This document shows positions 542 to 34,515 of a stretch of 59,404 nt of DNA, piece after piece. Under the pieces are notes generated by a model. It was not told the origin of the DNA. It searched no databases and saw nothing but the letters and a program-made list of their open reading frames with translations. A program made the translations under genes and the position numbers. Origin of the DNA: a virus (taxonomy: Duplodnaviria; Caudoviricetes); IMG/VR virus record IMGVR_UViG_3300010048_000011, positions 1 to 59,404 of that record; one strand, given 5' to 3'. Each line of letters begins with the position of its first letter. Positions within the stretch are counted from its first letter, which is position 1.

Positions 542-751
542 ATGCGCGGTCGCTATGTCGGTTCTATTGCAGTGACTTTTGACCCGCCGGTTGGCGCCGT
601 GCGTCCAGGTGATGTTTTTGACCTTCCTGCGGGACGTGAGAAGTCATTTCTTCAGCACGGGCACATCGAGCCGGCTGACAAGGCTGCCAAGGATTTCTTA
701 AATAAGGGCGCCACGCCCATTGACCCCGAGCCGGATAGCTCGACGGACTAG
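542..751 (+). CDS. Small virion-associated hypothetical protein
   Basis: GAGGAG RBS and ATG; tightly packed in the tail operon. Confidence 0.6.
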   Translation: MRGRYVGSIAVTFDPPVGAVRPGDVFDLPAGREKSFLQHGHIEPADKAAKDFLNKGATPIDPEPDSSTD

Positions 752-758
752 GAGGTTT

Positions 759-1736
759 CTGACTTTCTCCACGATTACCGAGCGTCCTGGCTCTCTTAGT
801 GCTGTCGGCGTGGCGCCTGAAGTCACGTTTGGCACGCCGGTCGCGGCAACGAATTTCTTGCCGGACATGAGCTGCAACATCGAGCCTGATCCGGGCTGGT
901 TCTCGCCGGGCGTGATGCAGGGCGTTCGCGACAAGCAGATTTACAATATGTATGGCGAGGCCAAGTTCACTGGCCCTATTGAGGGACCGGTCTTCCCGTC
1001 GATGGGTATTCCTATTCTCGCGGCAGCAGTCGGCACGGACGTCGTCACCGGCACCACGGCGCCGTACACGCACACCATTTCTCAGGCGAACACACTCAAA
1101 TCGTTGACGGTCGAAAAGAACATCGGCGGTTTTCAGTCCCTCCAATTCGCCGGTTGTCGTGTCGGCAAATTGACGCTGAAGTGTCCGACCGGCGACCAGG
1201 CCGCCACAATGACGGCGGATATCACCGGGCGAGCAGTAGCGGTACTGGACTCTCCTACGGCCATCAGTACGGTCAACGAAAGCCCATATCAGTTCGCCGA
1301 GGGCACGCTGACAGCGTTCACGAATATCCGTGCCGAAGCCACCAACATCAGCATCGACATCGACAACGGCCTCAAGAGTACCTACACGTTCTCCGGCCAG
1401 CACGGACCGAACTTCATCACCCCGGTAACGCTGACCGTGAACGGCTCTTTTGATGTGGTGTGGGACAGCCTTGACGACAGCACCTATGGCGACTTTACCA
1501 AGATGGAGAACGGAACGCTCGGCGCGCTGAATTTCACCCTCGCACACGCCACAGCACCGAATTATTCCGTCGCCATCACCTGTCCGCAGATCGTCATCAA
1601 CAAATACAAGAACGACCTGAAGCTGACAGACGTCGTCATGTCCACGCTGAACTTTGAGGCAACCAGGCCGCTGACCGGCGGTTCGCAGTACACCATTCAG
1701 GCCGTCGTCACCAACGGCATCTCCGCAGCCTACTAA
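759..1736 (+). CDS. Major tail tube protein (probable CTG start)
   Basis: Thr/Gly-rich beta protein with 'VGVAPEVTFGTP' and 'SLTVEK' just before the chaperone and tape measure genes; AGGAGG-TTT-CTG at 750-761. Confidence 0.8.
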   Translation: MTFSTITERPGSLSAVGVAPEVTFGTPVAATNFLPDMSCNIEPDPGWFSPGVMQGVRDKQIYNMYGEAKFTGPIEGPVFPSMGIPILAAAVGTDVVTGTTAPYTHTISQANTLKSLTVEKNIGGFQSLQFAGCRVGKLTLKCPTGDQAATMTADITGRAVAVLDSPTAISTVNESPYQFAEGTLTAFTNIRAEATNISIDIDNGLKSTYTFSGQHGPNFITPVTLTVNGSFDVVWDSLDDSTYGDFTKMENGTLGALNFTLAHATAPNYSVAITCPQIVINKYKNDLKLTDVVMSTLNFEATRPLTGGSQYTIQAVVTNGISAAY

Positions 1737-1752
1737 ACACACCAAGGGGTTT

Positions 1753-2238
1753 ATGGCCTTTCTCGACCATTTCATTGAGACAGAACAGATCTCCATCGGC
1801 AATGGCTACTGGATCGAGATCAAGACCACTTTGACGCACGACGAGAAGGAACGCGCCGACCGCCACATGCAGAAGATTGACGCCACTGTGGACGAACGGG
1901 GAAAAATGCACGGCGTCGTGTCACCTGACTATGCGAGCTATCGGCGTGCCTTGGTCGCGGCCAGCATCGTCGCATGGAATCTGGACGAGGCAGACGGAAC
2001 TAAGTGGGCACTGAGCCCGGACTCCGCGCGACACCGCAACATCGGCCGGTTGCCAGAGCACGTGTTCGAAGCCGTGTATCGACGGGTCGACGAGGTCAAC
2101 AAGCTCGATCCGCTGGCAGACCGCAGCTTTCGTACTGAGTTTGTCGGCAGCGCTGAGGATGGGGTCACCGGGACCGCCGACCTTGCAGAAATACCTGTGG
2201 GAGACGGCGCTGTGGAAGCGCTTGGGAATACCGGCTGA
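1753..2238 (+). CDS. Tail assembly chaperone (G)
   Basis: Lies between the tail tube and tape measure genes; 'IVAWNL' motif. Confidence 0.75.
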   Translation: MAFLDHFIETEQISIGNGYWIEIKTTLTHDEKERADRHMQKIDATVDERGKMHGVVSPDYASYRRALVAASIVAWNLDEADGTKWALSPDSARHRNIGRLPEHVFEAVYRRVDEVNKLDPLADRSFRTEFVGSAEDGVTGTADLAEIPVGDGAVEALGNTG

Positions 2239-2332
2239 GCCGCTCAGTAGCCGTCCATGGCGGGAAGCCCGCGAGTACCAAATGATCATCCAGGCCATAG
2301 ACCGCGAGGAGGCTTCTGGCTACAACCGCTGA
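2129..2332 (+). CDS. Tail assembly chaperone C-terminal extension (T), probably reached by a +1 frameshift
   Basis: The +1 frame is open from TTT-CGT (2128-2133) and encodes 'LQKYLWETALWKRLGIP..PWREAREY'. Confidence 0.55.
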   Translation, partial: FVLSLSAALRMGSPGPPTLQKYLWETALWKRLGIPAEPLSSRPWREAREYQMIIQAIDREEASGYNR

Positions 2333-4862
2333 GGCGCTGCTGCTCGCGATCTTGGAAGCGGAAAACCGTACCGATGAGGCTTTCGAGGCCGCCATCGCGA
2401 ACGTAGAGGCATACAAGGAAGCATGCGACAGCGCGGCCGGTGAGGTCGAGGGCGCGACCGACCGTATGGACGAGGCGTGGGACCGCTCGACCGAAGACGC
2501 CGACAACCGTCTAGGTGAGGCAGACGACCACATCCGGAATTTCGCCGATGACGCCGTTGTCGACCTGGACCGGATACAAACCGAGGCCGATCGCACGGCC
2601 GACCATTTCGACGACATGGACGAGCACACGTCGAGCGCCATTGACGACATCAATCAACGGCTACATGAATATAGAGACGGCGTAAGCGATTCTAGTGGCG
2701 CTACCGAAGAACTGCGCCAGCGCATGGAAGCCTGGGATGAAGAGGCTAAGCATGCCGGAGAAACCGTCGAAGATACCCGCGAACACATTCACAACATGGA
2801 CGAAGACGTCGGCCGCGTCAGTGGCGACTTCGATCGGCTGTCCGAATCCATAGATCGCAGTAACGGACATCTAACGGCGATCCGGAATCAACTCGCAGTC
2901 GTTGGCCAAGCGACGGATCTCTTCGTTGCTGATCTGATGCGCGGCGCGGAGAGCGTCGACAAGGAAGGCGAGGAAGCCGAGAAAACCGGCAAGAAGCTGG
3001 ACAACCTCACGAACTCCACCAACAAGGCAACCAAGTCAGGCAAGGGTCTTCATGGTCAGGCGATGCTCATTACGGCCGCACTCATCGCGTTCGCTGGCCC
3101 TATCGGTGGTCTGCTGACGCTTGGCATCCCCGCATTCTTCGGGGCGCTGGGTGCCGGAGCTGAAGCCGTCCACACCAAGTACGCGCAAATGATCGCTAGC
3201 GGCCAGAAGCTGACGGCGACACAGCGCGCACTGTACGACGCGTCCATTCCGCTCGTGAATGGCTTCGCCGTGGTCAAGAACGCGGCCGATGGAGTCATTC
3301 AGCAATTCGCGCACATGATCACTAAGGAAGCGCCGGAGCTGCGGGAGGCATTCGACGCTTTGGCCCCTGAGGTGCAAATTCTCGGTGGCGGACTGATTGG
3401 CTTCACACGGATTCTGATCAGCGGATTAGCTCCTGCCGTCGCGACGGTGCAACCGGTGGTAGCCGCTTTCGCCAGCGGGTTGAAACAACTGGCGTCCGAT
3501 CTCGTCGCGCTGCTCACGCACATTCGAATCGACGAAGCGGTGCAGGGCATCCAGGCATTGTTTAGAGTGTTGTCTGCGGTTCTCGGTATCATCAGTGCAC
3601 TGCTCGACGCGCTCATGCCGATCTCAAATATGTTCCTGAATGCGGCTTCCTCGATCATCGTCGTTGTATCGGCGCTAGTTCGCGATCTGGCGCCCGCACT
3701 GTCGTCCGTGGGTGAGTTGTTCGCGCCTTTGGCCAAAATGATCAACGCTGTGCTATTGGCACTGACCCCCCTGATTACGGCAGTCAATGGCGCCGCGAAC
3801 CAATTGGCTGGTTTGCTGGTCCCGATTTTGAATAAGATGACGCCGCTGATCGGAAAATTGTCCAACGAAATCGCAAAAGTCCTGGTTCAGGCGCTCAACT
3901 CGACGATGGAAGTTCTGACACCATTGCTTCCTGTCCTGGGCGATCTGGCCGATCAGATTCTGCAAGCCTTAATCCAAATGCTTCAGGCGGCGGCCCCTGC
4001 TTTCGATTCCGTCGTTAAAGCGATAGGTGAATTGGCGCCTACCCTGCCTGGTCTGGTGACCGACGTGACCGATCTGGTCAAGTCGGTCGCCCCCGTGATC
4101 GTCGAATTTATCAAATTCGCGGCCACCGTGACCGAAGCTGTCATGCCCGCAGTCGTCGCGATCGTTGGTTTCTTGATCAAATTCTTTGGCCCGGCGTTCG
4201 ATGCCGCAGGTCACATTATCTCAGATTTCGCGCGCGATGGCAAAGAATTCATTCAGGGCTTCATTCAGTTCGCGGTCTGTCTTTTCAATCTCTTGAAAGA
4301 CTGGTTCTCCGGAAACTGGGGAAATCTCTGGAATGACGCCTGGGTTGTCCTTCAGGGCTTCGGAAAAATGTTCATGGGAATTGTTCGACAGTTCGTCCAG
4401 ATCGGCGTCGATATTGTTCAGGGCCTATGGCAAGGAATCCAGCAAGCCTCCAGTTGGTTCATGTCCAAGATCGGCGGACTGGGCAATCAAATCGTCAATG
4501 CTTTTCAAGGTGTGCTTCACATCTTCTCACCTTCGCAAGTCATGGCTGATAAAGTGGGTCAGTACATTCCAGCCGGTATCGCTCAAGGAATGCTAGCCAA
4601 CGCGCACCTCGTTACCAACGCGGCTCGCGCTGTGGCAAATCAAGCGGTTGTCGGTGCGCAGATCGGTGCGTCGGTCGGTGTGGGGCTCGGTCTCAACGCG
4701 ACGAACTCCTGGTCTAGCAACGAAAACAATGGCAGGCCGATCCAATTCCTGATGCAAGGCAACCAGCTTATGAGCGATAGGGACATGCAAGTTTTTGTCG
4801 ACAAGATGGGGCCAACGCTGGTCAACATGTTGCAACGTGCTGGCGTGAATATCCGGAAATAG
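2316..4862 (+). CDS. Tape measure protein (probable CTG start)
   Basis: ~848-aa Ala/Leu-rich helical protein with periodic Pro and Trp/Phe and C-terminal 'IFSPSQVM..VG..IPAGIAQG'; AGGAGG-CTT-CTG gives MATTAEALLLAILEAENR. Confidence 0.9.
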   Translation: MATTAEALLLAILEAENRTDEAFEAAIANVEAYKEACDSAAGEVEGATDRMDEAWDRSTEDADNRLGEADDHIRNFADDAVVDLDRIQTEADRTADHFDDMDEHTSSAIDDINQRLHEYRDGVSDSSGATEELRQRMEAWDEEAKHAGETVEDTREHIHNMDEDVGRVSGDFDRLSESIDRSNGHLTAIRNQLAVVGQATDLFVADLMRGAESVDKEGEEAEKTGKKLDNLTNSTNKATKSGKGLHGQAMLITAALIAFAGPIGGLLTLGIPAFFGALGAGAEAVHTKYAQMIASGQKLTATQRALYDASIPLVNGFAVVKNAADGVIQQFAHMITKEAPELREAFDALAPEVQILGGGLIGFTRILISGLAPAVATVQPVVAAFASGLKQLASDLVALLTHIRIDEAVQGIQALFRVLSAVLGIISALLDALMPISNMFLNAASSIIVVVSALVRDLAPALSSVGELFAPLAKMINAVLLALTPLITAVNGAANQLAGLLVPILNKMTPLIGKLSNEIAKVLVQALNSTMEVLTPLLPVLGDLADQILQALIQMLQAAAPAFDSVVKAIGELAPTLPGLVTDVTDLVKSVAPVIVEFIKFAATVTEAVMPAVVAIVGFLIKFFGPAFDAAGHIISDFARDGKEFIQGFIQFAVCLFNLLKDWFSGNWGNLWNDAWVVLQGFGKMFMGIVRQFVQIGVDIVQGLWQGIQQASSWFMSKIGGLGNQIVNAFQGVLHIFSPSQVMADKVGQYIPAGIAQGMLANAHLVTNAARAVANQAVVGAQIGASVGVGLGLNATNSWSSNENNGRPIQFLMQGNQLMSDRDMQVFVDKMGPTLVNMLQRAGVNIRK

Positions 4863-4869
4863 GAGGGCT

Positions 4870-6288
4870 GTGAGCGTACCGGCACTGCCGAACTTGACCT
4901 TCCTGATTCAGCCGCCCGGTGGCGCGCACGTCGACTTCACGGCGAACTTGGCTTACGACGGCATATATTCGCAGATGACGATTACGCAGAACTTTGGCAG
5001 GCAGGGTGATACCGCGACGTTTGTGTTGGTGGACGAGTACAACGGAACGCCTAACATCCTCATTATTCCCGTGTTCTCGCAGGTTACTCTCATCGATAAC
5101 AACCTCGGTACCACCCTGTTTGCCGGAGTCGTCAACGATCCGCAGTTGCAAGTGGACGGACCTACTCGTAATGAATGGGTACTCAACTGTACGGATTACA
5201 CTTACTATGCCGACAACTCGACTCCGGTCATCGGTCTCTTTGAGAACATGAACACACAGGACATTGTGGTGTCGCTGACGAATCAGGCTGACTGTGGCAT
5301 CAGCGCGGCGACGGTGTCTCGCGGCGGCTTCGTCGCTTCCGGCCCCAACCTGCCGTCCATCAACATCGGCTACCAATCGCTTAGCTCAGCCTGGAAACAA
5401 GTTGCGCAGCTAGCCGGTCAGGTGACGCCGTACGGTTGGTATGTCGACGAGAACCGGCACCTGCATTTCTATGATGCATCCACGGCCCTGTCTTCCGGCG
5501 TTACCTTTACGACAACGCCAACTGGCACCGGGCCCAGCACCACACAGGGACACATCACACCGGACAGCACGCAGGCGTATGAATGGGATGGCACAACAGT
5601 CCACAATCGCATCCTCGTCCAGGGCGCTGCGCAGAAGATTTTCATTAACGCCAAGGTGCAAGGACCGGTTGACACATTCCGAGGCGACGGTGTATCGACA
5701 GCCTTCCCGCTGCGCTTCACTTTCTCTGGTCTGGAAAAGCTCACCGTCAACAACGTGCTCGTCAATGAGATCAACGTCGTGCCACCCGGCTCACCGAACT
5801 CGGCGGGCACCGTTCCTAGTGCAAATTGGAACATCATTCAAAACAACATCAACGCATTCAGTCTGACGGCCAACGTGGCACCAAGGGCCGGTTCAGTAAT
5901 TCGCGTCTGGTACGACTATGACATTCCCATCGTCGTGCAGGTCAATGACATCCAGTCGCAAAGCGATTTCAACGGCCCTAACCGGGGCATCTTTGGCGAA
6001 TTCATCAGTGACACAACCCTAACCACGACGGCAATGGCCTTGGCTCGTGCCCAGCGGGAGCGGCAGGAATACGCGTTCCCCGTCGAGCGGTTCACCTTTA
6101 ACACCACGGAAGATTTCGTCGGTTGGGTTCGGTCTGGGTACACGTTCCAACTCGTCAACCAATTTGTACCGGACACGGAGCGCGGCAACGCATTGGGTAT
6201 CAACGACACGTTTCTGTGTATCCAGAACCGAATCACCTTTGGCAATGGCGGCTATCGCACGATGCAGATTACGGGGGTGCGCATCTAA
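4870..6288 (+). CDS. Minor tail / baseplate hub protein
   Basis: Follows the tape measure gene; beta-rich; 'WYVDENRHLHF' and 'NRILVQG'. Confidence 0.75.
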   Translation: MSVPALPNLTFLIQPPGGAHVDFTANLAYDGIYSQMTITQNFGRQGDTATFVLVDEYNGTPNILIIPVFSQVTLIDNNLGTTLFAGVVNDPQLQVDGPTRNEWVLNCTDYTYYADNSTPVIGLFENMNTQDIVVSLTNQADCGISAATVSRGGFVASGPNLPSINIGYQSLSSAWKQVAQLAGQVTPYGWYVDENRHLHFYDASTALSSGVTFTTTPTGTGPSTTQGHITPDSTQAYEWDGTTVHNRILVQGAAQKIFINAKVQGPVDTFRGDGVSTAFPLRFTFSGLEKLTVNNVLVNEINVVPPGSPNSAGTVPSANWNIIQNNINAFSLTANVAPRAGSVIRVWYDYDIPIVVQVNDIQSQSDFNGPNRGIFGEFISDTTLTTTAMALARAQRERQEYAFPVERFTFNTTEDFVGWVRSGYTFQLVNQFVPDTERGNALGINDTFLCIQNRITFGNGGYRTMQITGVRI

Positions 6289-6500
6289 TGAGTGGTGTAG
6301 TTCGACCGACGACACTTATCGACGTCTTGGCGACCATCAACCAGAACTCGCTTCCACCGGTACAGGCCGACGACACGACGGCGCAGGGAGTCTTTGTCGA
6401 GGCTGACGAGGCGATGACGCTGGCCGACTCCATGACGACGACTGTGGCGACACCAGCAGGCTGGGATGGGGGACTGTGGGGTTCGACCTGCTGGGGGTAG
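6288..6500 (+). CDS. Small minor tail protein
   Basis: TAATG coupling; C-terminal 'GWDGGLWGSTCWG' repeat typical of tail proteins. Confidence 0.6.
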   Translation: MSGVVRPTTLIDVLATINQNSLPPVQADDTTAQGVFVEADEAMTLADSMTTTVATPAGWDGGLWGSTCWG

Positions 6501-6507
6501 GAGGATA

Positions 6508-7059
6508 ATGGCCTTCTGTTCTACTTGCGGAATTCCTTTTAAGCCGATGCGGCGAGGAATGTGCGAGAACGACTATCGGCGGTGGCTAAGGTCAACAAGG
6601 CCAAAGAAGCCGAGAACACCAACTCCTATCTCACAAAGGCTGCTGTCGAAAATGGACAAGCACGGCCCTGTGTCTGATCGACGCCCGGATCTCGGTCCTT
6701 GCTGGGTGTGGATTGGATCATACGAGGGAACTGGCTATGGCAAGATTTGGGACAACGTGCGGCAGAAACTCATTCCCGCGCACCGTGCATCCTATGAGAC
6801 GTACGTCGGTGAAATCCCCGACGGCCACGAGGTTGATCATCTATGCTTTAACAAAGGATGCGTTAATCCGGATCACTTAGAGGCCGTTACTCCTGTCGTC
6901 AATGTGCAGCGGGCTGCGGCGTATCGGCAGTACGTAACTAAGACGCACTGTTCGAAGGGACACATATATGACGAGGCAAACACTCGGTACTACACGTGCC
7001 CCAGCGGGCGAACGTCCCGCTACTGCCGTGCGTGCGACCGAGGTCGGCGGCATCGCTGA
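6508..7059 (+). CDS. HNH homing endonuclease
   Basis: 'CWVWIG..GYG..AHRASY..DHLCFNKGCVNPDHL' plus flanking Zn-ribbon motifs; AGGAGG-ATA-ATG. Confidence 0.9.
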   Translation: MAFCSTCGIPFKPMRRGMCENDYRRWLRSTRPKKPRTPTPISQRLLSKMDKHGPVSDRRPDLGPCWVWIGSYEGTGYGKIWDNVRQKLIPAHRASYETYVGEIPDGHEVDHLCFNKGCVNPDHLEAVTPVVNVQRAAAYRQYVTKTHCSKGHIYDEANTRYYTCPSGRTSRYCRACDRGRRHR

Positions 7060-7567
7060 GGGCCTGAGTATCCGTGGACACCTGACGCTGACGGTGATGA
7101 ACGCCGACGGGTCCGAGGCCGATCGACGAGAAGGCGACAACGTCATCTGCACCAACGGTTATTCAGCGTTCGCTGCGGCCATGGTGTGGAGCGGTATCCA
7201 GGACCAGGCCACATCCATCGGCGTTACCGCGCCGACCTACCTCACGCCTCTGTGGGGAGCTGTGGGCACAGGCGCAGGCGTACCGGCCAAGAGCGACACG
7301 CAGCTTTTCACTGAGTACGCGCGGGAGCAGGTACAGGCAGGCGCGTCTAGCCCGGCGACCAGTTTGATTGCGGCACAAGCAACCTGGCTGTTTTTCTTTG
7401 CGCCGCCCGCGATCACCGTTGGTATCACCGAGGCTGGTGTTTTCGCGCTGGCTGACTCCGGTACCAACGACGGCACCCTGTTGGATCACTGGGCTTTTAG
7501 CCCGACGGTCACGGTGACGAACTTACAGAACTTAATCCTGCAAGTCTCTTTCGCGATGGGACCCTGA
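7052..7567 (+). CDS. Minor tail protein (start uncertain; ATC at 7052 or ATG at 6968)
   Basis: 'NVICTNG..AVGTG..SDTQL..ITEAGVF' is a tail-fibre/baseplate-type fold signature. Confidence 0.7.
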   Translation: MAEGLSIRGHLTLTVMNADGSEADRREGDNVICTNGYSAFAAAMVWSGIQDQATSIGVTAPTYLTPLWGAVGTGAGVPAKSDTQLFTEYAREQVQAGASSPATSLIAAQATWLFFFAPPAITVGITEAGVFALADSGTNDGTLLDHWAFSPTVTVTNLQNLILQVSFAMGP

Positions 7568-8298: not shown

Positions 8299-8304
8299 GA
8301 GTCG

Positions 8305-10977: not shown

Positions 10978-11309
10978 TGAAGAACTTACGCGAGCGTTTC
11001 GTCAACTTCGCTGACCGCGTGTCCTACGGGATGGGTCTGCCCAGTAACATCATGTTCTGGTTCGTCCTGCTCGTTGTCTGGACAGGTCTAGGTCCCACCA
11101 TTGCGCATACGCACTGGCTACCCGAGTGGTTCACCAGCAGCGCATGGAACTTCCCATTGAACACTATTACCACCATCATTGAAATGTTCGTCGGTTTTCT
11201 GATCGCTGCGTCCAACAACAGACAGGAACGTCATTTGTTCACGGTGTTGGAACGGATCGAGCAGCTTGAGCAAAAGATTCTCGACGACGAGGAAGGACAT
11301 TCTGACTGA
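10977..11309 (+). CDS. Two-TM membrane protein (DUF1003/low-affinity iron permease-like)
   Basis: 'FADRVS..G....W...GP..W...LNTITT......LI.ASNNRQ' pattern. Confidence 0.55.
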   Translation: MKNLRERFVNFADRVSYGMGLPSNIMFWFVLLVVWTGLGPTIAHTHWLPEWFTSSAWNFPLNTITTIIEMFVGFLIAASNNRQERHLFTVLERIEQLEQKILDDEEGHSD

Positions 11310-12009
11310 ATTTCGCTACCTCAAAGAGGACCCCGACAATCCGTATCGGCTCGGTCGACACCAGGTCCCCAAGGCATTGGAGCCTGAGAAGGACGCGCGG
11401 CTGATCAGCTCATTGTGGTTCCGGGCAATCGTGCCCGTGACACACACGGAGTTCGAGCCAGTCTTTGATCAGGGCGACCTCGGGTCGTGTACCGCCAACG
11501 CGGCGATCAGTTGCTTGGTCACGGAGCCTTACGGGCACAAGGGAGTCTCGCTCACCGAGGCTGACGCCGTTGCGCTGTACGAGCTGGAGACGAAGCTGGA
11601 CGACTCGCAGATCCCCGGCGAATATCCTCCGCAGGACACTGGCTCCACTGGCCCGTGGTCCATGCAGGCATTGATGAAGCAGGGCAAGATCAAGGACTAC
11701 ATCCACGCGACCAGTACGCATATGGCGCTGCGGATGCTCAACCATGGCCCGATCAGTATTGGTGTGCCGTGGTTTCAGTCGATGTTCACTGTGGACGAAG
11801 ACGGCTTCATCGACTTCCAGCCGAAGTCCGGTCTTGCTGGCGGGCACCAGGTCTGCATCGTGGCGAATGATGTCGACGACCAAAAGATCTTGGTGCGCAA
11901 CTCGTGGGGTCCGGACTGGGGCGACGAGGGTCATGCCTGGCTCGCCTGGGAGTCCCTTGACTACCTGCTTGCCCACGGTGGTGACGTTGTCCAGCCGGTG
12001 ATGTCGTGA
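11302..12009 (+). CDS. Papain-like cysteine peptidase (C1A), probable CTG start
   Basis: Catalytic triad motifs DQGDLGSCTANA, GGHQV and VRNSWGPDWG. Confidence 0.9.
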   Translation: MTEFRYLKEDPDNPYRLGRHQVPKALEPEKDARLISSLWFRAIVPVTHTEFEPVFDQGDLGSCTANAAISCLVTEPYGHKGVSLTEADAVALYELETKLDDSQIPGEYPPQDTGSTGPWSMQALMKQGKIKDYIHATSTHMALRMLNHGPISIGVPWFQSMFTVDEDGFIDFQPKSGLAGGHQVCIVANDVDDQKILVRNSWGPDWGDEGHAWLAWESLDYLLAHGGDVVQPVMS

Positions 12010-21805: not shown

Positions 21806-22697
21806 ACCGGAACCACCGGAGCCAGAACCAGAGCCTGAGTTGTATGTCGGCCTGGAAATGCGGGGCTATCGCAGCTTTATTGCCGATTGGGACGGCACGG
21901 TGCCTATCCTGCGCCCTGTCCATCGTGGACGGTTGACGCCATGGGTCCCAGGAGAGAACACAGCAGTGTGTTACGGCGGCAGCGGCTACACACCTGATGT
22001 AAAGGCAGACTTCCACGGCGACCCTATCCCGAACCCACGCTGTTCATGCGGCTTCTGGGCGTACATGGACGCTGACGGACCGGCACATGACGTGGCTCAA
22101 CACCTGGTCGCCTACCCGTACGCGTCGACGCTGGTCACTGGCGTCATTCACGCACGCGGGCGCACCCAACAGGTGGAACTTGGATTTCGTAGTGCACGTG
22201 CTGAAATCGCGGCCCTAGCGCCACCGCGTTCGGTAGCGCCCGAGTTGCTCAAGCTCATGAGTCCGACCGAGACGGAACGGCTCAGGCTCTATCGTGAATT
22301 GAACCGGTACAACCACTCCGGACTGTGCCCCTGCTTGTCCTGCAAAGCAGAGCGTGGTGACCCGCCCGCGCCGGATCTGGCGACATTAGCGGAACGGTAC
22401 GGGGTGCCTTTCTTCAGCAGTTATACCGACATGACAGTCGCCTGGCCCGCGACGCACCAGTCCAGGTTTCTTACTGACCCGTATTTTGCTCCCCAGTACA
22501 TCCCGGGCCGTCTTAATGATCTGTCCACATCAGAACAGGTCGCGGAAGCGGGGCGAGAGGTCGTCAGGTTCTACGAGAACAACCTTCGGACGCGCAAAGG
22601 ACGGTGGCCGGTACAGCCGGATTTCACCGGATCGTCGGGCACGGTGGTTGCCAAGTGGTGGAACTGGTCACTGACGAAGTCCACGAGCGATATCTAG
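21696..22697 (+). CDS. Conserved actinophage hypothetical protein
   Basis: 'GYRSF..AVC..H..P..CSCGFWA..GFRSARA' motif set. Confidence 0.7.
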   Translation: MSQPQNLAAAFSALLNQTIKRHHPAYTPSPQIYALSKPEPPEPEPEPELYVGLEMRGYRSFIADWDGTVPILRPVHRGRLTPWVPGENTAVCYGGSGYTPDVKADFHGDPIPNPRCSCGFWAYMDADGPAHDVAQHLVAYPYASTLVTGVIHARGRTQQVELGFRSARAEIAALAPPRSVAPELLKLMSPTETERLRLYRELNRYNHSGLCPCLSCKAERGDPPAPDLATLAERYGVPFFSSYTDMTVAWPATHQSRFLTDPYFAPQYIPGRLNDLSTSEQVAEAGREVVRFYENNLRTRKGRWPVQPDFTGSSGTVVAKWWNWSLTKSTSDI

Positions 22698-22706: not shown

Positions 22707-22859
22707 ATGGCACAGATTGGTGCACCGGTCGGGCCACCAATCCATATTGAACCAGCACCCATTCCGGAGCAGGCACCCGTACGCGAGCCTTCGCCGGTGA
22801 TCATGCCTCCGGCCGAGACGCCGTCGCCGGAGCGCGAACCTGAATTGGTCCCTGCATAG
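22707..22859 (+). CDS. 50-aa Pro/Glu-rich peptide
   Basis: GGGAG RBS and ATG; MAQIGAPVGPPIHIEP...EREPELVPA. Confidence 0.65.
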   Translation: MAQIGAPVGPPIHIEPAPIPEQAPVREPSPVIMPPAETPSPEREPELVPA

Positions 22860-22866
22860 GAGGATT

Positions 22867-23157
22867 CTGAGCGAACGACTAGACCAGCTTCTGACGCAGT
22901 ATGGCACCCTGAAGCCACGAGCGGATGAACTCGCCGAAGAACTGAAGGCGCTCACCGACGCAATCAAGCTAGAACTCACGCTGGAGAATCCCGGCGAAAC
23001 GAAAATCGCTGTCCGGCACCCAGCGCTGAGTAACCCTATGCGGCTGCAATACGTCCGGCAGATGCGTGTCGACACCAAACGACTACGCGAGGAAGCTCCC
23101 GAGTTGTACGACGAGTATGCCCGCGAAATCGCGTGGTGGGAACTGCGTCCCGAATAG
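22867..23157 (+). CDS. 96-aa hypothetical protein with CTG start (absent from the ORF track)
   Basis: AGGAGG-ATT-CTG; MSERLDQLL...VDTKRLREEAPELYDEY; fills the gap exactly. Confidence 0.75.
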   Translation: MSERLDQLLTQYGTLKPRADELAEELKALTDAIKLELTLENPGETKIAVRHPALSNPMRLQYVRQMRVDTKRLREEAPELYDEYAREIAWWELRPE

Positions 23158-23166: not shown

Positions 23167-23610
23167 ATGCCAATCAACGTACCGCTGTTGCGCAAGGAAC
23201 TCGAATTCCTGACGGCGCATCCGGAACAGCACAAGCAGTCGTGGTGGCTGGAGTGGCGGGACGCCGTGCTTAATGAGACGATCGAGTGTGGCACCAAGGG
23301 CTGTCTTGCGGGTAATGCACTGCTACACGCGGGTCGGCTTCGTGGGCACACTCACGTCTACTGGACCGGATCAGGCTACGAGTCCGACGGTACTAACTAC
23401 TGGCCGGACGGGGAGGACTACGCCAGTTACGCGGAGCACTCGGCCCTAAGTTGGACCAGGGCAGGCGCCGCCCTCTTTGGACTGACGTACACTCAGGCGG
23501 ACAAAGTGTTCTACCAGAACAACACGCTCCCCGATCTCTGGCGACTGGCCAACAAATTCACGAACGGCGAGATCGAGATTCCGCCGGAGGTTTCTGACAA
23601 CACCGGATGA
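23167..23610 (+). CDS. Hypothetical protein
   Basis: AGGAGG RBS; 'Q..W..CGTKGCLAG' motif. Confidence 0.7.
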   Translation: MPINVPLLRKELEFLTAHPEQHKQSWWLEWRDAVLNETIECGTKGCLAGNALLHAGRLRGHTHVYWTGSGYESDGTNYWPDGEDYASYAEHSALSWTRAGAALFGLTYTQADKVFYQNNTLPDLWRLANKFTNGEIEIPPEVSDNTG

Positions 23611-23614
23611 ATTC

Positions 23615-24415
23615 ATGGCGGCTGCGCCCGCTCCGCTGAATGGAAGTTCAGCGTGGGCCAGCCGGTACGCGACAGAGCTACGTGGCATCATCACGCAGCA
23701 CGCGTCACGCGCTCCACGTAGTGTCCAGCAGTTTCTCGGACCGAGCGAATTGGGCTCTGCGTGTGATCGGCAGGTCGCCGGGAAGATGGCCGGGTCGTCA
23801 CACACTAATCACATTTCGGACCCATGGCCATCGATCGTCGGCACTGCTATTCACGCCTGGCTAGCGGATTGTTTCGCGGGAGACAATCAGCGGACAGGCA
23901 TTTTGCGTTGGATTGCTGAGCAGCGCGTAACTCCTCACCCTGACCATCCAGGCACGGCGGATCTATACGACGCCCATGAAAGGGCGGTCGTCGATCACAA
24001 ATGCCTCGGGACGACTACTATGAGTAAATTGCGCGCTCACGGTCCCTCGCGAAAATATCTGATACAGCTCTTGCTCTACGGTCACGGTTACCGGCAGCTC
24101 GGATTGCCGGTGGACCGGGTTGTGCTGGCGGCCTACCCACGGACAGCGTCCACACTGGACGGCATGTACGTGTGGGACCGGCCGCACACAGCCGAGGACG
24201 ATCTCATCGTCGATGCGGTGCTGGCACAGACAAAGATCCGTTACCAGTACGCGACTGCGCTACGGGAACGCCAGATCAGGCTCTTGGATATTCCTGCCAG
24301 CCCTAGCGATGACGAATGTTTCTACTGTCCTTTCTACCGGCCAGAAGCCGATGGGCGCACCGATGGGTGTCCTGGCACGGTAGGAAACCGCACTATACTA
24401 GGGAAAGCAGCGTGA
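23615..24415 (+). CDS. Cas4-like PD-(D/E)XK exonuclease
   Basis: 'GPSELGSAC', 'GTAIH', 'GTADL..VVDHK', 'Q..LYG', 'CFYCPF..CPG'. Confidence 0.85.
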   Translation: MAAAPAPLNGSSAWASRYATELRGIITQHASRAPRSVQQFLGPSELGSACDRQVAGKMAGSSHTNHISDPWPSIVGTAIHAWLADCFAGDNQRTGILRWIAEQRVTPHPDHPGTADLYDAHERAVVDHKCLGTTTMSKLRAHGPSRKYLIQLLLYGHGYRQLGLPVDRVVLAAYPRTASTLDGMYVWDRPHTAEDDLIVDAVLAQTKIRYQYATALRERQIRLLDIPASPSDDECFYCPFYRPEADGRTDGCPGTVGNRTILGKAA

Positions 24416-25741: not shown

Positions 25742-25743
25742 AC

Positions 25744-26344: not shown

Positions 26345-26347
26345 AAC

Positions 26348-26608
26348 CTAGTCCTCGTCGGACATGGCGGCTGCGGCGGCGACAACGCCGTCGGGAATGT
26401 CGCCGGTTTTCGCGTTGTGCCTGAGCAGATCCAGCACCTCCGTAGTTTGATCGGCAGGAATCTTGGCGACAGCGAAGCGCTTGGTGGGGCTGGACTCGTC
26501 ACCGTGCAACAGCCAGTGGGTGATACGGCAGCCCGCGAGAAAGCCACCGGCCAAGCAGACAGCGGCCGTGACAGCGATGGCCAGGGCATCAACGATCTTG
26601 TGCTTCAT
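26348..26608 (-). CDS. Membrane-anchored hypothetical protein
   Basis: GGGA RBS and ATG; N-terminal TM. Confidence 0.5.
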   Translation of the reverse strand: MKHKIVDALAIAVTAAVCLAGGFLAGCRITHWLLHGDESSPTKRFAVAKIPADQTTEVLDLLRHNAKTGDIPDGVVAAAAAMSDED

Positions 26609-26634
26609 ACATTTCCCGTCGGTTGGCAGTCGAC

Positions 26635-28386: not shown

Positions 28387-28664
28387 CACAGACCACAGAA
28401 CAGGCCAAGGAAAAGACTGAGGAACAGCCCGTCCACGAGATCAGCCCGGAACTCAAGCTCGTGCACGTGATGACGGACTATCTGCTGGACGACGACGACA
28501 CGCGTGCGAATCTCCAGCGGTGGATGTGCGAGCGGTCCGACTGCGCCGGTGACTGCAACCCCAAGGAGACGGACAAGGCGATCATTATCCTGCTGGCGAA
28601 TCTCCAGTTCAGCATGGTGATGCTGGCGACGATCATGACCCAGCTCTCGCAGGGCGGGGCGTGA
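28383..28664 (+). CDS. Hypothetical protein
   Basis: ATGA overlap. Confidence 0.6.
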   Translation: MTQTTEQAKEKTEEQPVHEISPELKLVHVMTDYLLDDDDTRANLQRWMCERSDCAGDCNPKETDKAIIILLANLQFSMVMLATIMTQLSQGGA

Positions 28665-28667
28665 CCT

Positions 28668-28796
28668 ATGTGGACCATGATCGGAATCCTCATCGGTGGC
28701 ATCTGCTTCTGCACGGGTGAGTTCGTCGGCGCCTGGGCGGCCCGGCAGGGTATCAAGAGGGCTGCTGCGGAACTGCGGAAGAACGCACTCCTGTGA
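28668..28796 (+). CDS. 42-aa membrane peptide
   Basis: MWTMIGILIGGICF...; fills the gap. Confidence 0.5.
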   Translation: MWTMIGILIGGICFCTGEFVGAWAARQGIKRAAAELRKNALL

Positions 28797-28960
28797 GGCA
28801 GGGCAAGAAAAATCGCCGTCGGTTGGTCGCGCGCATCGATGCGTGGACGGAGCTGAAGGCCGAGGGAATGCACGACCCCCACAACAAAATAGTCCGTCGC
28901 CCCGACGGCAAGCCAAGCCACTCCTACCGGAAACCGGGGTCGCAGAACGGCCGCAAGTAA
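28793..28960 (+). CDS. 55-aa basic protein
   Basis: GTGA overlap; ends 'YRKPGSQNGRK'. Confidence 0.55.
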   Translation: MRQGKKNRRRLVARIDAWTELKAEGMHDPHNKIVRRPDGKPSHSYRKPGSQNGRK

Positions 28961-28972
28961 AAGGAGACGCCA

Positions 28973-29482
28973 GTGTCGGAGCATCCACCTCGTCTCATCA
29001 TCGGTGTTGATCCGGGACCGACACCGGGGCTCGCAGCAGCCTGGTTCTGGCAGCCCGGCACGCAATGCACCTGGCTAGACGCCGAGTTCGGTTTCGCTCA
29101 GTCCGATCCGGACACCATGGTTGATCTGCTGCTCGGGTGGACACGGGAATTTCTCTCGGAATCGATCGTCATCGCGACGGAAACCTATGTCGTAAGTAAC
29201 CGGTCGAGCCGGTCGTCACATTCCAGTGCGCGCGAGGCAACACAGGCCGTACTCGACCGTGTGAAGAATTTCGCCGACGAGGAACGCATCGCCCGCGTCA
29301 CCCGACCGGCCGGGATCGTCAAGCCCTGGGCTACCAACGAACGCCTGAACGCTGTGGGTTTTCTCAGCCGTACCACGGGCTCCACGCACGCACGGGACGC
29401 CAGCCGACACATGCTCTACGCGGGTGTGCATGACGTCGGCCTGCCCGACCCATTCAGCAAAAAGACCTCAAAGAAAGAGTAG
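28973..29482 (+). CDS. RuvC-like Holliday junction resolvase
   Basis: 'IIGVDPG', conserved E, 'HARDASRH'. Confidence 0.8.
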   Translation: MSEHPPRLIIGVDPGPTPGLAAAWFWQPGTQCTWLDAEFGFAQSDPDTMVDLLLGWTREFLSESIVIATETYVVSNRSSRSSHSSAREATQAVLDRVKNFADEERIARVTRPAGIVKPWATNERLNAVGFLSRTTGSTHARDASRHMLYAGVHDVGLPDPFSKKTSKKE

Positions 29483-29485
29483 GCA

Positions 29486-30973
29486 ATGCCGACTGCAACG
29501 AAAACGAAGGATCCCGCCGCCGAGAACGAGAAGGCCATTCTCGCCAAGCTCGCGGAGCTGGGTTCCAAGAACGTCACCGATGACTCGCTTATCTTCGAGG
29601 GCACCAAGTTCGTTCTTCCGGCGCACTTCGGCGGCAACGTGGACGGCGCCATTCGGTTCCTGGATGATTGGCGCAAGCGCAATGAGGAGGTCGTGCAGTT
29701 CTCGCGTGATTTCCTTTACCGTCCGTGGGACGGCGCGGCGGCGTTCGAGCGTGCGATGAAGCGGCTGTTCGGCACGGCGGGCATCGGCAAGGCCGTGCAA
29801 ACGTTGTTCGGCAAGCGCCCGCCGGAGATGCGGTCGATCGCCGTCGGTCCCAATGAGACTCTTCAGGTGCCGTGGGGTTGGATTGAGTTCTCGCCACTGA
29901 AGGCCAGGTTCTGTCTCGGGGCGATGACGCACCCGGACAAGGGTCTGATCTTCTCCATCGCCGTTGAGGCGCCTCTCCAGCGGCGGACCGAGATCGAAGG
30001 GTTCTTCTCCATTGTGGAGGAGGAGCTGCGGGAGCGCTCCATCTACCGGGGCAAGGCTTTCCGTGGCTGCGAGGACCCCGATTTCATTGACACCAAGGCC
30101 ATCGACCCGTCCGTCGTGGTGTACGCCGACGAGGTTCAGGCGCAGCTCGCGACCAACATGTGGTCCCTGCTGCGGCACTCGGATGCCATGCGGCGCAACA
30201 GGATTCCCCTGAAGCGGGCGGTTCTCGTCGAGGGTCCCTACGGCACGGGCAAGACGCTGGCCGGGATGCTGACGGCCAAGGAGGCCGTGGAGAACGGCTG
30301 GACGTTCATCTTGGCGCGGCCGGGCAAGGACAATCTCGGCGACGTCCTGAAGATGGCGCAGCTCTATTCCCCCGCCGTCGTCTGGTACGAGGACATCGAC
30401 GTCGTCGCCAAGGGCGAGAACGACACCCAGATCTCGCAACTGCTGGACGCGTTGGACGGCATTACCGCCAAGGGAAACGAGATCCTGGCTGGGTTCACGA
30501 CCAACTTCGCCGACCGTATCCAGAAGGGTGTCCTACGTCCGGGCCGGCTGGATGCCGTCATCCACATCGGACCGCTCGACGATGCCGGGATCGAAAAGCT
30601 GTGCCACGTCGCGATTCCCGCCGACCGGCACGGTGACATCGACTATGGCGAGGTGTGTGAGCGGTTCGTGTCGGAGACCTGGCGCCTGCCGAGCTTCGTC
30701 AGTGAGGCCGCCCGCCGTGCCATGGCCTATTCGATCGCCCGCAACAATGGCGAGCTAGGGCTGATCGAGACCGCCGACCTGGTCAATGCCGCGATCTCGC
30801 TGGGCAATCAGGTGGAGCTGATGGACCGGGCCGCTGAGGGTGTGAAGGTACCGGCGCTGGATCTGGCTCTGTCCAACGTGTTCAAGACCGGCCTGGATGG
30901 CTCGACATGGTTCGACGACGACGGCGACGAGATCATCAAGTTGCGTACCAACGGAGTTCCCGCCCGCGCATAG
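29486..30973 (+). CDS. AAA+ ATPase
   Basis: GPYGTGKT, 'YEDID', 'TTN', 'RPGRLD'. Confidence 0.92.
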   Translation: MPTATKTKDPAAENEKAILAKLAELGSKNVTDDSLIFEGTKFVLPAHFGGNVDGAIRFLDDWRKRNEEVVQFSRDFLYRPWDGAAAFERAMKRLFGTAGIGKAVQTLFGKRPPEMRSIAVGPNETLQVPWGWIEFSPLKARFCLGAMTHPDKGLIFSIAVEAPLQRRTEIEGFFSIVEEELRERSIYRGKAFRGCEDPDFIDTKAIDPSVVVYADEVQAQLATNMWSLLRHSDAMRRNRIPLKRAVLVEGPYGTGKTLAGMLTAKEAVENGWTFILARPGKDNLGDVLKMAQLYSPAVVWYEDIDVVAKGENDTQISQLLDALDGITAKGNEILAGFTTNFADRIQKGVLRPGRLDAVIHIGPLDDAGIEKLCHVAIPADRHGDIDYGEVCERFVSETWRLPSFVSEAARRAMAYSIARNNGELGLIETADLVNAAISLGNQVELMDRAAEGVKVPALDLALSNVFKTGLDGSTWFDDDGDEIIKLRTNGVPARA

Positions 30974-31003
30974 AAGCTAACGGGTCCTTTGTGGCTCGTT
31001 CCC

Positions 31004-31046
31004 AGGCGGTGAGTCTGACGGAGGGCGGCCGTCAGACTCACCGCCT
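31004..31046 (+). terminator. Strong hairpin
   Basis: AGGCGGTGAGTCTGACGG...CCGTCAGACTCACCGCCT followed by CCCTTT. Confidence 0.55.
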
Positions 31047-31069
31047 CCCTTTCGATGGGAGACAACAAC

Positions 31070-33531
31070 ATGCACGACGACCACATGGACGAGCCCACGG
31101 ACGTTCCCGAGGATGCTGACACGGAAACACTGCGGGTGCCTAAGGACGGTGTCGCCGCGATCGTGGTGATGTGCCTCAACGGCGATCACGCGCACTTCAC
31201 AGCCGAGTTCGGCAGTCTGATCGATGCCGCGAACGGCCTGATCGACATGGCCAATCGACTACGGCAGATCTCCTCTGGGCTCAGGGACATCAATCGACTG
31301 GACCGGAGGCGGTTCGGGCTGTTCCGCCGTCGGTTCGCCTGGACCAAGATCCGTGAAATCAAAGGGGCGCGGTTCGAATGAAGTACCTGGATACGGACCT
31401 CGTTGACGAGACGCTGCGTAATCGTTTGGATGAGCTGGAAAAGGCGTACGGCCACGAGATCGCCGAAGCTCAGGCACGCGCGCGGATCGAGCAGCGCAGT
31501 CTTTCCGGAGAGCCCATTCCGTACGAGGTCATGATCGGAAGCACCACGGCGTATCGATTTCTGCGGAAGGTATTGCAGGCCGTGGACGCGTACATGCAGC
31601 GGCTCGACAGGGCAGCACAGAGAGAATCCATCGCCGCGATCAACGCGCAGCCCGCAGTGACGACGCAGTCCGATTCGGACAAGCAGCTCGCGGAGCTACG
31701 GAGGAAACTGCGGGACGACACGCAGAAACTTTACAATGGCTGACGAGGAATGGTTTTCCGACGAGGCGCTTGCCAGGCAAGACGAGATCGACAAGCTTAT
31801 CCGCGCGGGTAAGTACGTCGACAGTGATCTCACGATCGGAATGCTCGAACCCCGGGTGCCGCCGACGCCGGACGAATGCTGTGCTCACTGCGGAAGTGAT
31901 GCGCGGGATCAGGTCGGCGGTGAGGAAGTCGCCGGGCGCCGCTGGTGCTGGCTGTGTCACAGCCGGGAGTACTACACAGACAACAGCGACGTCGTCCTGT
32001 TCACCGGCAATTCGTGCCCGCGCTGTGGTGGCCCATCGGATGACAGCTATTTCGACCGGGAACCGTGCCCCGACCCGTGTAACACCATGCACACCCGCTG
32101 CAAGCACTGTGGCTGCCCGATCAATGGGTGTCCACTCGAAACCGGAAGGTTGCGCCGTGCCTGATCTGACACCCGACAATCACGCGCACTTCTACGAACT
32201 GAGCTCCGACATCCCGATCGAGGACCTTGAACAGCTTCCCGACAACACACAGATCGCCATCGGCATCCGGGACCACATCATCGTCAAGGGCGGGACAATG
32301 CTGTGTGTCCAGCGCTGCAAGGCACACCGGACATGGATGCTCCCGGAAGACCACGAGTGCCCCGATCCGTGCGCCGACTGCGTGTACACCGAAGTCGATC
32401 TCACGGTCGACGACTATGGCCTGCCGACCGAGGCGCACCATGCCCACTGATCTCACCGGCCAGCACGCGCCCATCCCGCTCGTCGATCAGCTCCGCGATC
32501 GTATGGGCCGCAGCGATGACGACGACGTGAAGCTGATGACCGTGCTACGGACGCTGGCGACCTTTGTGGACATCGTCGGCGAGGGTTCCGTCGGTTGTAC
32601 CGAGATCGAGGGCGCGTTGCGCGACGCCGGACTGCCGCAGTGGCTGGAAGACCTGGCGCGCCGGGTCGAGGACTATCAACAGCTCTGGACAGAACTCAAG
32701 GCGGCGACCAGCGATGAGTGACATGACCAATCTATGGCCCAACCAAATCCGAAATGAGGAAGACACCATGCGCAGGTTCAAAATGTTCGATCGTGAGGCA
32801 CTGGCCAAGGCTCGTCGCGACGGACGCGAACTCACGCCACTGTGGGAGGGCGTGGTGTTCAAGACGGGGCAGGTGTCGGCACGCTGTGCACTGGGTGGCC
32901 GGGGGCCACTCAAGCAGTACGATTCGTTCGGGACGTTCATGACTGCCGTCCACAAGACTGAACTGCCTTCTACGCGTCTGGTGTGGACGGACGGCAAGCC
33001 GCAGGGCATCGACGACACTCCGGCCGAACCCGGGTACGGCAGCACCGTCATGGTTCACAAGGCGGGCAAGTGGCGGCCGTTCCGTAGCTCTGGTCTGGAT
33101 TCCTGGTTCAGCACGAGTGACAACTATCCATGGACGTGGGGTCAGGTCTGCCGGGACGCGGATCAGATCATCCTCGTCGCACAGGACAACACGCTGCTGG
33201 TCGACGTCGAGCCGCGCAACGCGAGCGCCAAGAAGGTGTTTCTGCGGTGAGTGCCGTCATGCTGGAGGAGAAGCCCACGGAGTCCGAGGACACGCCGTAC
33301 TACTTCAGTCAGGGCAACCACAATCGCTGGAACATCTACCTCCGGCGCTCCGTTTCTGAAGGGCTGCACGAGGATGTGTTCATCGGTGTGGTATTCGATG
33401 ACTACGTGGCGGGGCTGATCTGCGCGGTATTGAACGCGTGGCGCAGTCAGGAAGACGTCTCCAGCGCTGAACTCGATGACATGACCAGCGGCATGCCGAG
33501 GGCAGACAAGCGGAAGGTGAAGCCGTCATGA
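31070..33531 (+). CDS. Cluster of seven coupled hypothetical genes (31070-31381, 31378-31743, 31736-32164 Cys-rich, 32157-32450, 32440-32721, 32714-33250, 33247-33531)
   Basis: Consecutive stop/start overlaps with RBSs. Confidence 0.6.
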
Positions 33532-34058
33532 GCCTTGCACTGGACTTCTATCGGGACAGGGAAACTGATCACCGCGGACTGTCCCGTAAGGACATTCTCG
33601 CGTACACCAAGGAACAGCTCGACGCGGACACCGAGTTCATCGACTGGTTGTTTCCCTTGGACTACGCCAGCACCCCCTACTCACCACTGCTCACCTATGC
33701 GGACCTCAACGAGTTCGAACACGACCGGGTACTGCAATCCAAAATCGTGGATTCCCTTGACCGGATGCTGATGTACTACCGGATGCTGCGGGTCAACGCT
33801 CCCGACGGCCGGATCGTCATCGCGCGTAACACCGAGGAGTTCGAGGCGAATTCCGTCCACTGGCTGTCCATGGGGGACGCGAATTACGGGCGGCTCGCGC
33901 GCATGATCGAGTCGCTGACGCTGTGTGGGTTGCGGCCGTACGCGTGTGCGTTGTGCCGGTGCCTGTGGAGTGTGGCGCAGGATTTCCCGGACAAGGTCGA
34001 CGCCCGGTCGGTTGCCATGTGGACGCGAGCGACGTCGGTTGAGCGGTATCAGCGGTGA
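33528..34058 (+). CDS. Opioid growth factor receptor (OGFr) N-domain protein
   Basis: 'FY..D.RG...I..L....FIDWLFP..RML.YY..W....N..R..R...SL...G'. Confidence 0.75.
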   Translation: MSLALDFYRDRETDHRGLSRKDILAYTKEQLDADTEFIDWLFPLDYASTPYSPLLTYADLNEFEHDRVLQSKIVDSLDRMLMYYRMLRVNAPDGRIVIARNTEEFEANSVHWLSMGDANYGRLARMIESLTLCGLRPYACALCRCLWSVAQDFPDKVDARSVAMWTRATSVERYQR

Positions 34059-34357
34059 CGTGGCAGCCCGGCGACCCGCTGTACGCCCCGAACGAGGCGA
34101 TCTACCTCTGTCCGCGCTGCCACTACCCGGCGCATGAGCTGCTGGGTGAGCCGGTCGTCCAGTGTCCCAGTTGTGGCCGCTATGCCCAGCGGGGCGACAC
34201 CGAAGCAACCTACCGCGCGTACTACTCGCGTCACATTTTCCAGGCGGGCGGCCAGAAGAAGATCACCCCCGACGAATACGCCACGTACATCAAGATCTTT
34301 GCGTCGGGAAACATGTGCGCGCTGCCTGACGCCGGTATGCCGGAGGTGATCGAGTGA
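34055..34357 (+). CDS. Zn-ribbon hypothetical protein
   Basis: CPRC...CPSC; GTGA overlap. Confidence 0.55.
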   Translation: MTWQPGDPLYAPNEAIYLCPRCHYPAHELLGEPVVQCPSCGRYAQRGDTEATYRAYYSRHIFQAGGQKKITPDEYATYIKIFASGNMCALPDAGMPEVIE

Positions 34358-34515
34358 TCTGCAATCCCTGCTGTAGCGCGGCGGATTCCGGCCAGAGCCA
34401 CCGCGATTGTCGGGGCTGGTCCTGGTGCGACTGCCAGCACGCCACGGTGTCACGGGCCGCGCCGGAGCCCCAGCCGATCCCTACCCCTCAGGAGTTTTCT
34501 GACACAAAACAGTGA
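34354..34515 (+). CDS. 53-aa Cys-rich protein
   Basis: GGAGG RBS; MICNPC..H..C.G..WCDCQH. Confidence 0.6.
   Translation: MICNPCCSAADSGQSHRDCRGWSWCDCQHATVSRAAPEPQPIPTPQEFSDTKQ

Follow-up and report, generated by a model that had tools for sequence, protein, structure and literature searches.

The gene of initiation factor IF3, infC, begins with a near-cognate AUU codon that senses the IF3 level. High IF3 inhibits non-canonical starts, according to one report (PMC2268962), and CTG figures among the alternative phage start codons in the Phage Annotation Guide (PMC8785237). The base that precedes the start codon also contributes: in Escherichia coli, a U at position -1 raises initiation by pairing with A37 of the initiator tRNA (tRNAfMet), as concluded from compensatory tRNA mutants and about 45,000 mRNAs (PMC10018350). 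The DNA considered here (hereafter the window) comes from an uncultured soil phage and comprises the whole of an IMG/VR virus contig, 59,404 bases long (IMGVR_UViG_3300010048_000011). Six of its genes carry an in-frame CTG three or four bases after a Shine-Dalgarno (SD) motif; translation of these genes very probably starts at these CTGs, a reading to which we give a probability of about 0.85. The six genes are as follows, lengths of proteins being given in amino acids (aa).

750..1736, plus strand: tail tube gene; SD AGGAGG at 750-755, spacer TTT, CTG at 759-761, stop at 1736.
2307..4862, plus strand: tape measure gene (PHROG tape measure families); SD AGGAGG at 2307-2312, spacer CTT, CTG at 2316-2318.
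11289..12009, plus strand: papain-like (C1) peptidase gene (Pfam Peptidase_C1); SD-like GAGGAAGGA at 11289-11297, spacer CATT, CTG at 11302-11304.
22858..23157, plus strand: 96-aa gene; SD AGGAGG at 22858-22863, spacer ATT, CTG at 22867-22869.
23586..24415, plus strand: PD-(D/E)XK exonuclease gene (phrog_1674, E 2.8e-59); SD GGAGG at 23586-23590, spacer TTT, CTG at 23594-23596.
34490..40075, plus strand: replicase gene, 1858 aa (Pfam domains); SD AGGAG at 34490-34494, spacer TTTT, CTG at 34499-34501.

Three of these genes are involved in tail or lysis functions (tube, tape measure, peptidase) and three lie in the replication region (96-aa gene, exonuclease, replicase). Five of them had been pointed out in an earlier note on this DNA: the letters at these sites are exactly those that it gave, every CTG is in frame with its long open reading frame (ORF), and the ordinary starts for which it claimed the same geometry of AGGAGG plus three bases (4870, 6508, 10684 and 58413) are present in the sequence. 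The sixth site, GGAGG-TTT-CTG-ACA at 23594, was absent from that note and came to light when the sequence was scanned for long ORFs that open with CTG behind any SD, a search that also recovered the five known sites. AGGAGG or GGAGG stands three bases before the CTG at four sites, AGGAG four bases before it at one and AAGGA four bases before it at one. The stop codon of the upstream ORF is at most 17 bases from each of the six CTGs; the TAG of the gene upstream of the tube (749-751) overlaps the tube SD, and the peptidase start overlaps the upstream stop as CTGACTGA. A TAGGAGG-NNN-NTG cassette is found in seven copies against 0.20 expected (none of 100 shuffles reaches seven), and the first base of its NTG is provided by C, A and T in two copies each and by G in one. 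As this base varies between copies of the cassette, CTG occupies the same slot as the ordinary starts. The motif GGAG-NNN-TCTG is also present in seven copies (2.4 expected; 0/100 shuffles reach seven), five of which are gene starts. A perfect cassette, TAGGAGG-TAT-TTG (52098-52149), stands before an ORF no longer than 13 codons where no gene was called; this ORF may encode a leader peptide or be a remnant.

In four of the five genes of the earlier note, an in-frame canonical codon (ATG, GTG or TTG) is located within 12-21 codons, and the case for CTG therefore rests on homology. The claim that these five genes lack a canonical start at their ribosome-binding site holds to the extent that no alternative codon has an SD at working distance, but not if it is taken to mean that such codons are missing from the vicinity. 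Within reach, the tube has TTG 720 or GTG 810, the tape measure TTG 2352, the peptidase TTG 11266 and the replicase GTG 34562, the 96-aa gene being the only one of the five to have no canonical codon before ATG 23038. Upstream of the CTG, the ORFs of the 96-aa gene, replicase, exonuclease and tape measure contain no in-frame canonical codon; an upstream TTG exists for the tube and the peptidase, but it has neither an SD nor a counterpart in G001, a complete relative of 67.8 kb.

The tube protein matches the Pfam family PF18906 (Phage_tube_2) over the entire profile (positions 1-266 of 266; E 2.9e-23; 83.3 bits for a cutoff of 27), and the gene order (tube, two overlapping ORFs, tape measure) fits this assignment. 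An alignment-seeded scan of IMG/VR gave 45 tube loci, of which the partial L052 was dropped; among the 44 others, which include three identical pairs, the start column holds GTG in 26, ATG in 11, TTG in one and CTG in two. A canonical codon is thus found exactly at this column in 38/44 homologs, three more have GTG one codon off and one is unclear. Residues 1-17 of the tube align with the 44 homologs. CTG starts are carried by G001, whose tube ORF has no in-frame canonical codon upstream, and by L021, which has an in-frame TAA four codons upstream, whereas G002 (locus L002), the closest relative of the window, has GTG. In a quick tree of tube proteins, which has Shimodaira-Hasegawa-like approximate likelihood ratio (SH-aLRT) support only and from which two rows without a clear start were left out, the three CTG rows fall inside one well-supported clade of 14 rows and the CTG label requires at least two changes. 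The two overlapping ORFs that follow the tube gene (1753-2238, then a second frame open at 2015-2332) are arranged as is usual for tail assembly chaperones produced through a -1 frameshift; no classical slippery heptamer was spotted by eye in this ORF pair (1753-2332). The CTG of the tape measure falls within the second of these ORFs.

For the tape measure, G001 has AGGAGG-tct-GTG at the CTG column of the window, both starts being equally distant from the conserved LLL..L[ED]A[ED][ND]R block, and L002/G002 has an identical GAGGAGGCTT-CTG-GCC. For the peptidase, a probable lysis enzyme, the column is occupied by ATG in L012 and by CTG in G001 (AGGAGG-ATT-CTG-ACT), the GTG of L013 being one codon upstream of it. 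Exonuclease homologs were found at 59 IMG/VR loci, and among the 56 for which an N-terminal alignment was obtained, ATG or GTG stands exactly at the CTG column in 12 and one codon upstream in at least 14; a CTG at the projected column of L115 is unreliable, as the alignment of this protein begins at residue 16. The conserved P-A-[ED]-F of the exonuclease precedes ATG 23615 of the window. In the replicase frame, no canonical codon is found between 34358 and GTG 34562, which encodes a valine inside the block AL.[VI]AR.L...G[VI]P; all 18 N-terminal homologs from IMG/VR start upstream of this block, part of which would be lost by starting at GTG 34562, and residues 10-21 are conserved in all 18. 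The frame of the 96-aa gene contains no ATG, GTG or TTG from the opening of the ORF at 22801 to ATG 23038 (residue 58), so that a gene caller restricted to these codons would miss it, since 57 codons pass without one; an in-frame CTG at 22840 is an alternative start that is likewise non-canonical. The homolog of this gene in G001 starts with ATG eight codons further upstream. Fifteen database homologs (106-131 aa), which came from a profile search with a two-sequence alignment (a single-sequence query gave no match), have a conserved core that begins at residue 2 of the window protein. For both the replicase and the 96-aa gene, the start codons of homologs are within 2-8 codons of the CTG column. 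Overall, relatives have ATG, GTG or TTG either exactly at each CTG column or no more than a few codons away, and the earlier claim that core genes start at CTG in a shared context is well supported by these columns together with the difference in context described below.

Relatives of the window also appear to use CTG starts. G001 has CTG starts in its tube (AGGAGGTAGTTTT-CTG-G), its peptidase (ATT-CTG-A) and a gene called P0006 (GAGGTGAT-CTG-ACG), the ORF of which contains no upstream canonical codon. In four relatives of P0006, GTG or ATG stands nearby, GTG being one codon on in G007 and G006 and ATG five codons upstream in G004. At the P0006 column itself, L144 (G002) has ATT and L146 (G005) has GGAGGAGG-gtat-ATC, other relatives having GTG; canonical codons of these two homologs are 30 (G002) and 10 (G005) codons upstream, and their ATT and ATC are possibly further near-cognate starts, although this reading is ambiguous. 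Another candidate of G001, P0007 (AAGGAG-AATTT-CTG-ACG), has no homolog in the five relatives searched. Single-protein scans of IMG/VR with the replicase N-terminus, P0006 and P0007 gave no match or the query only, and alignment queries gave homologs for replicase, tube and exonuclease. Candidate CTG starts thus concern eight different genes across the window, G001 and G002. Since close relatives swap CTG and GTG or ATG at the same columns, this looks more like a tolerance of CTG in the lineage than a switch for one class of genes, a tolerance that could equally be a property of the host.

The CTG sites differ from ordinary starts by their immediate context. They were compared with 28 canonical starts of the window that were hand-picked for a clear SD: TT occupies positions -2/-1 at 6/6 CTG sites and 1/28 canonical starts (Fisher p 5e-6), T occupies position -1 at 6/6 and 5/28 (Fisher p 3e-4) and A occupies position +4 at 5/6 and 9/28 (Fisher p 0.06). 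At the homology-supported CTG sites of relatives, T is found at -1 in 5/5 and TT in 3/5, several of these sites being homologous to those of the window and hence not independent; their flanks include TTTT-CTG-G (G001 tube), GAT-CTG-A (G001 P0006) and CTT-CTG-G (G002 tape measure). SD pairing energy and the fold of the -30..+30 region do not differ between the six CTG and the 28 canonical sites (Mann-Whitney p 0.35 and 0.20, one canonical value being a contig-end artefact). As SD strength and fold are alike, only the -2/-1/+4 context and the short spacer distinguish the CTG sites. The possibility that an ATT one codon upstream is the true start was discarded, this codon being present at only two of the six sites.

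The phage to which the window belongs is temperate and siphovirus-like. Its contig has a completeness rating of 88% and a G+C content of about 60%, and Pfam and PHROG identify in it a tail module made up of the tube gene, the two overlapping ORFs, the tape measure gene and others for the tail. It also encodes the papain-like peptidase, a serine integrase and, on the minus strand, an FtsK/SpoIIIE-like protein, and the start of a large terminase gene is found at the contig end. Its replication module includes the exonuclease, a SNF2 helicase and the 1858-aa replicase, a fusion, encoded by a single ORF, in which a primase-polymerase-like N-terminal part is joined to D5_N, to a helicase region with DUF5906 and to a DNA polymerase of family A. 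The helicase region of this replicase is split by a homing-endonuclease domain of the LAGLIDADG type, which spans residues about 510-880 and is probably an intein; the homolog of G001 has 1476 aa. Nothing close to the window turned up among the cultured phages of INPHARED, where neither megablast of two 6-kb stretches nor tblastn of the tube protein gave any match. The SNF2 helicase shares at most 31-35% identity with proteins of cultured phages, and its top matches all belong to actinobacterial phages; moreover, clusters resembling the window regulator, which combines HTH_31 and DUF5753, are nearly all from Actinomycetota. These two lines point to an actinobacterium as the probable host. The tube alignment has a sole match in 185,579 species genomes, L064, at the end of a 4-kb contig of a bog metagenome-assembled genome (MAG) labelled Candidatus Melainabacteria (67% identity over 125 residues). 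This is more likely a binned phage fragment than a clue to the host, and a single 4-kb MAG contig does not suffice to name one.

Combined with the data on context, the following model, which we consider fairly probable, can be drawn for initiation at these sites. Ribosomes that terminate at the upstream ORF may feed the CTG site, where the formyl-methionyl initiator tRNA of the host would read CUG despite a C:U mismatch at the first codon base. A strong SD (mostly AGGAGG or GGAGG) 3-4 bases upstream would compensate for this mismatch. In addition, A37 and A38 in the anticodon loop of the initiator tRNA would pair with the U at -1 and, usually, with that at -2, and U33 would pair with the usual A at +4. 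UUCUGA thus complements five of the six bases at loop positions 33-38, all but the one that faces the first codon base. Pairing of U-1 on a weak start codon was reportedly demonstrated in chloroplasts by Esposito and colleagues in 2003. That this extended pairing is the main reason why CTG works is a tentative idea, somewhat short of even odds, and the yield would presumably be adequate for the tube protein.

Several points weigh against initiation at CTG or against this explanation of it. CUG initiation reaches 1-2% of that of AUG in E. coli reporters (bioRxiv 10.1101/063800), and CTG accounts for 0.03% of the reads in a selection of start codons carried out with an SD in Mycolicibacterium smegmatis (PMC4633059). 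Because CUG is weak in both tests, the use of CTG by an abundant tube protein is puzzling, in particular with an actinobacterial host. The tube, tape measure and peptidase genes could in principle use their nearby TTG instead. The comparison set was hand-picked, the sites of relatives partly share ancestry with those of the window, the earlier reader may have found the sites through the motif itself, and neither SD strength nor fold sets the CTG sites apart. The loop sequence used above is the general one of initiator tRNAs and may not be that of the host. Lastly, the only run found to carry window DNA is a DNA metagenome, and no RNA run was found.

Two further explanations also accept CTG initiation. 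According to the first, which we regard as doubtful, CUG would be fully serviceable in UU-CUG-A in this phage lineage and its probably actinobacterial host, six-base pairing with loop positions 33-38 replacing strict recognition of the triplet; this rule would be specific to the lineage and set by the machinery of the host or by an unrecognised phage product. The second, which is less likely still, invokes relaxed proofreading of start codons rather than local context, due either to a host lineage that is lax by nature, through variation in its initiator tRNA stem, in IF3 or in methylation of the 16S P site, or to a phage factor acting during infection. The free exchange of CTG with GTG or ATG at the same columns in close relatives suggests that CTG has a low cost, which fits relaxed proofreading, as do the number of candidate genes (eight across the window, G001 and G002) and the ambiguous ATT and ATC of two relatives at the P0006 column. 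One report also counts in its favour: weakened G-C pairs within tRNAfMet's anticodon stem lower the discrimination against CUG in vitro (PMC11497404). A screen for strong SD followed by TT-CTG, which is noisy and gives only a weak hint (stricter SD-codon screens lost true sites), points the same way, as it found such sites in the window, G001 and G002 and none in the more distant G004, G005 and G007. However, the great majority of starts in the window are still canonical, and the invariant T at -1 indicates that context matters, which general laxity would not require. The earlier note had proposed a translational control layer, by relaxed IF3 discrimination during infection or a phage factor, and nothing tested supports it: the window contains no tRNA gene and no Rfam match, and none of 62 ORFs scanned, most of which have no known family, has a translation-factor, ribosomal or RNA-modification domain in a Pfam scan. 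A phage factor is therefore unsupported.

It is improbable that the CTGs are coincidental and that translation begins instead at the closest canonical codons (TTG 720 or GTG 810, TTG 2352, TTG 11266, ATG 23038, ATG 23615 and GTG 34562). Such a codon is found in frame within 7-25 codons for five of the six genes, gene finders limited to ATG, GTG and TTG would choose these codons, and CTG is a poor start in the bacteria tested. Nevertheless, none of them has an SD at working distance. The downstream ones would remove conserved residues, namely residues 10-21 of the replicase, the P-A-[ED]-F of the exonuclease, 57 of the 96 residues of the small protein and the first 17 residues of the tube. A start at TTG 720 or TTG 11266 would lengthen the protein by a tail whose coding sequence shares 32-44 bases with the preceding gene; relatives have no such tails, G001 having an in-frame stop or no canonical codon there.

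Still less probable is the production of the 96-aa protein by +1 frameshift fusion with the 50-codon proline-rich ORF that directly precedes it (22707-22859), without use of its own CTG. The 96-aa core is in the +1 frame relative to this ORF, and its homologs carry variable proline/alanine-rich leaders of 8-35 residues ahead of the core. However, the leader of the fusion would exceed 50 residues and be longer than that of any of the 15 homologs, and the junction is a TAGGAGG-NNN-NTG stop-SD-start cassette of the kind used at six other places. In addition, the ORF found at the same place in G001 is unrelated, small and hydrophobic (probably membrane-spanning), the 96-aa homolog of G001 has its own ATG, and re-assembly shows no indel. 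Programmed frameshift or read-through from the upstream ORF was rejected as a general explanation, since at these columns homologs carry start codons of their own.

The bases themselves, for which the earlier note called for a check in reads, could be verified in part: re-assembled contigs (Logan) of the run carrying the window match it at CTG 22867, 23594 and 34499 (three of the six sites), with a single difference in 19,951 bases (T>G at 22230, unrelated to the CTG sites). As this run is probably the source sample, the agreement is not independent, and contigs from other samples with CTG at the same columns argue more strongly against error. It is hardly credible that the CTGs are mistakes of sequencing or assembly, or that the genes are decaying pseudogenes of a defective element, for although the window is a metagenome assembly with a mean word depth of about 7 and 88% completeness, the re-assembly agrees at three sites, separate contigs from other samples have CTG at the same columns in the same context and the six ORFs are intact over 96 to 1858 codons with conservation at the protein level.

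Other features of the window concern starts and neighbouring genes. The motif TCAAGGAGGTA precedes consecutive genes of the minus strand between 45227 and 51594 (nine exact copies and three with one mismatch), and a copy with one mismatch is located at 8-18 on the plus strand, giving 13 in total where 0.45 would be expected. The motif is a ribosome-binding element of extended, fixed form, in which TAA or TAG often comes right after the SD and GGAGG is followed by a spacer of 4-10 bases. It resembles start-associated sequences of some mycobacteriophages. A gene encoding an HNH endonuclease (6508-7059), probably a free-standing homing endonuclease, lies between tail genes and has its own TAGGAGG-ATA-ATG cassette; the match of G001 in this region is weak.

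If these genes do start at CTG, calling canonical starts alone would shorten the tape measure, replicase and tube by 12 to 21 conserved residues, would lengthen or shorten the peptidase and exonuclease, and would lose the conserved 96-aa gene. CTG starts usually pass for rare curiosities, and common gene finders are not known to consider them. A lineage rule of this kind would be invisible to such programs, many genes of phages and hosts could be mis-started or missed, and the rules of start-codon choice would vary between phage-host lineages beyond what annotation assumes. If UU-CUG-A is what makes CUG work, the six genes would provide a natural test set for extended pairing of the initiator tRNA on a weak start, a model whose tests have until now relied chiefly on AUG libraries and on a single engineered gene of chloroplasts.

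Among known systems, infC resembles the window genes by having a near-cognate start whose use depends on the proofreading of initiation. It differs from them in that the window genes are structural, lytic and replicative, that relatives swap CTG for GTG or ATG and that nothing indicates feedback. A likeness also exists with quadruplet pairing between U-1 and A37, as the CTG sites have an invariant U-1 and a near-invariant U-2. The published cases concern a modest modulation of AUG or the rescue of one engineered weak codon, whereas in the window this pairing would, judging from the sequence, accompany a natural weak start almost obligatorily and reach as far as -2 and +4. The rare CTG starts of translation table 11 share with those of the window an in-frame CTG a few bases after an SD, presumably read as formyl-methionine. 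A literature search covering few subscription journals found no description of such a CTG-using lineage. Unlike CTG oddities limited to a single gene, the present starts concern six genes of one 59-kb genome, including the tail tube, tape measure and replicase, and their flanks are fixed. Initiation at CTG is thus known, and what appears to be new is its density, its use by major structural and replication genes, its recurrence in a small clade and its fixed UU-CUG-A context.

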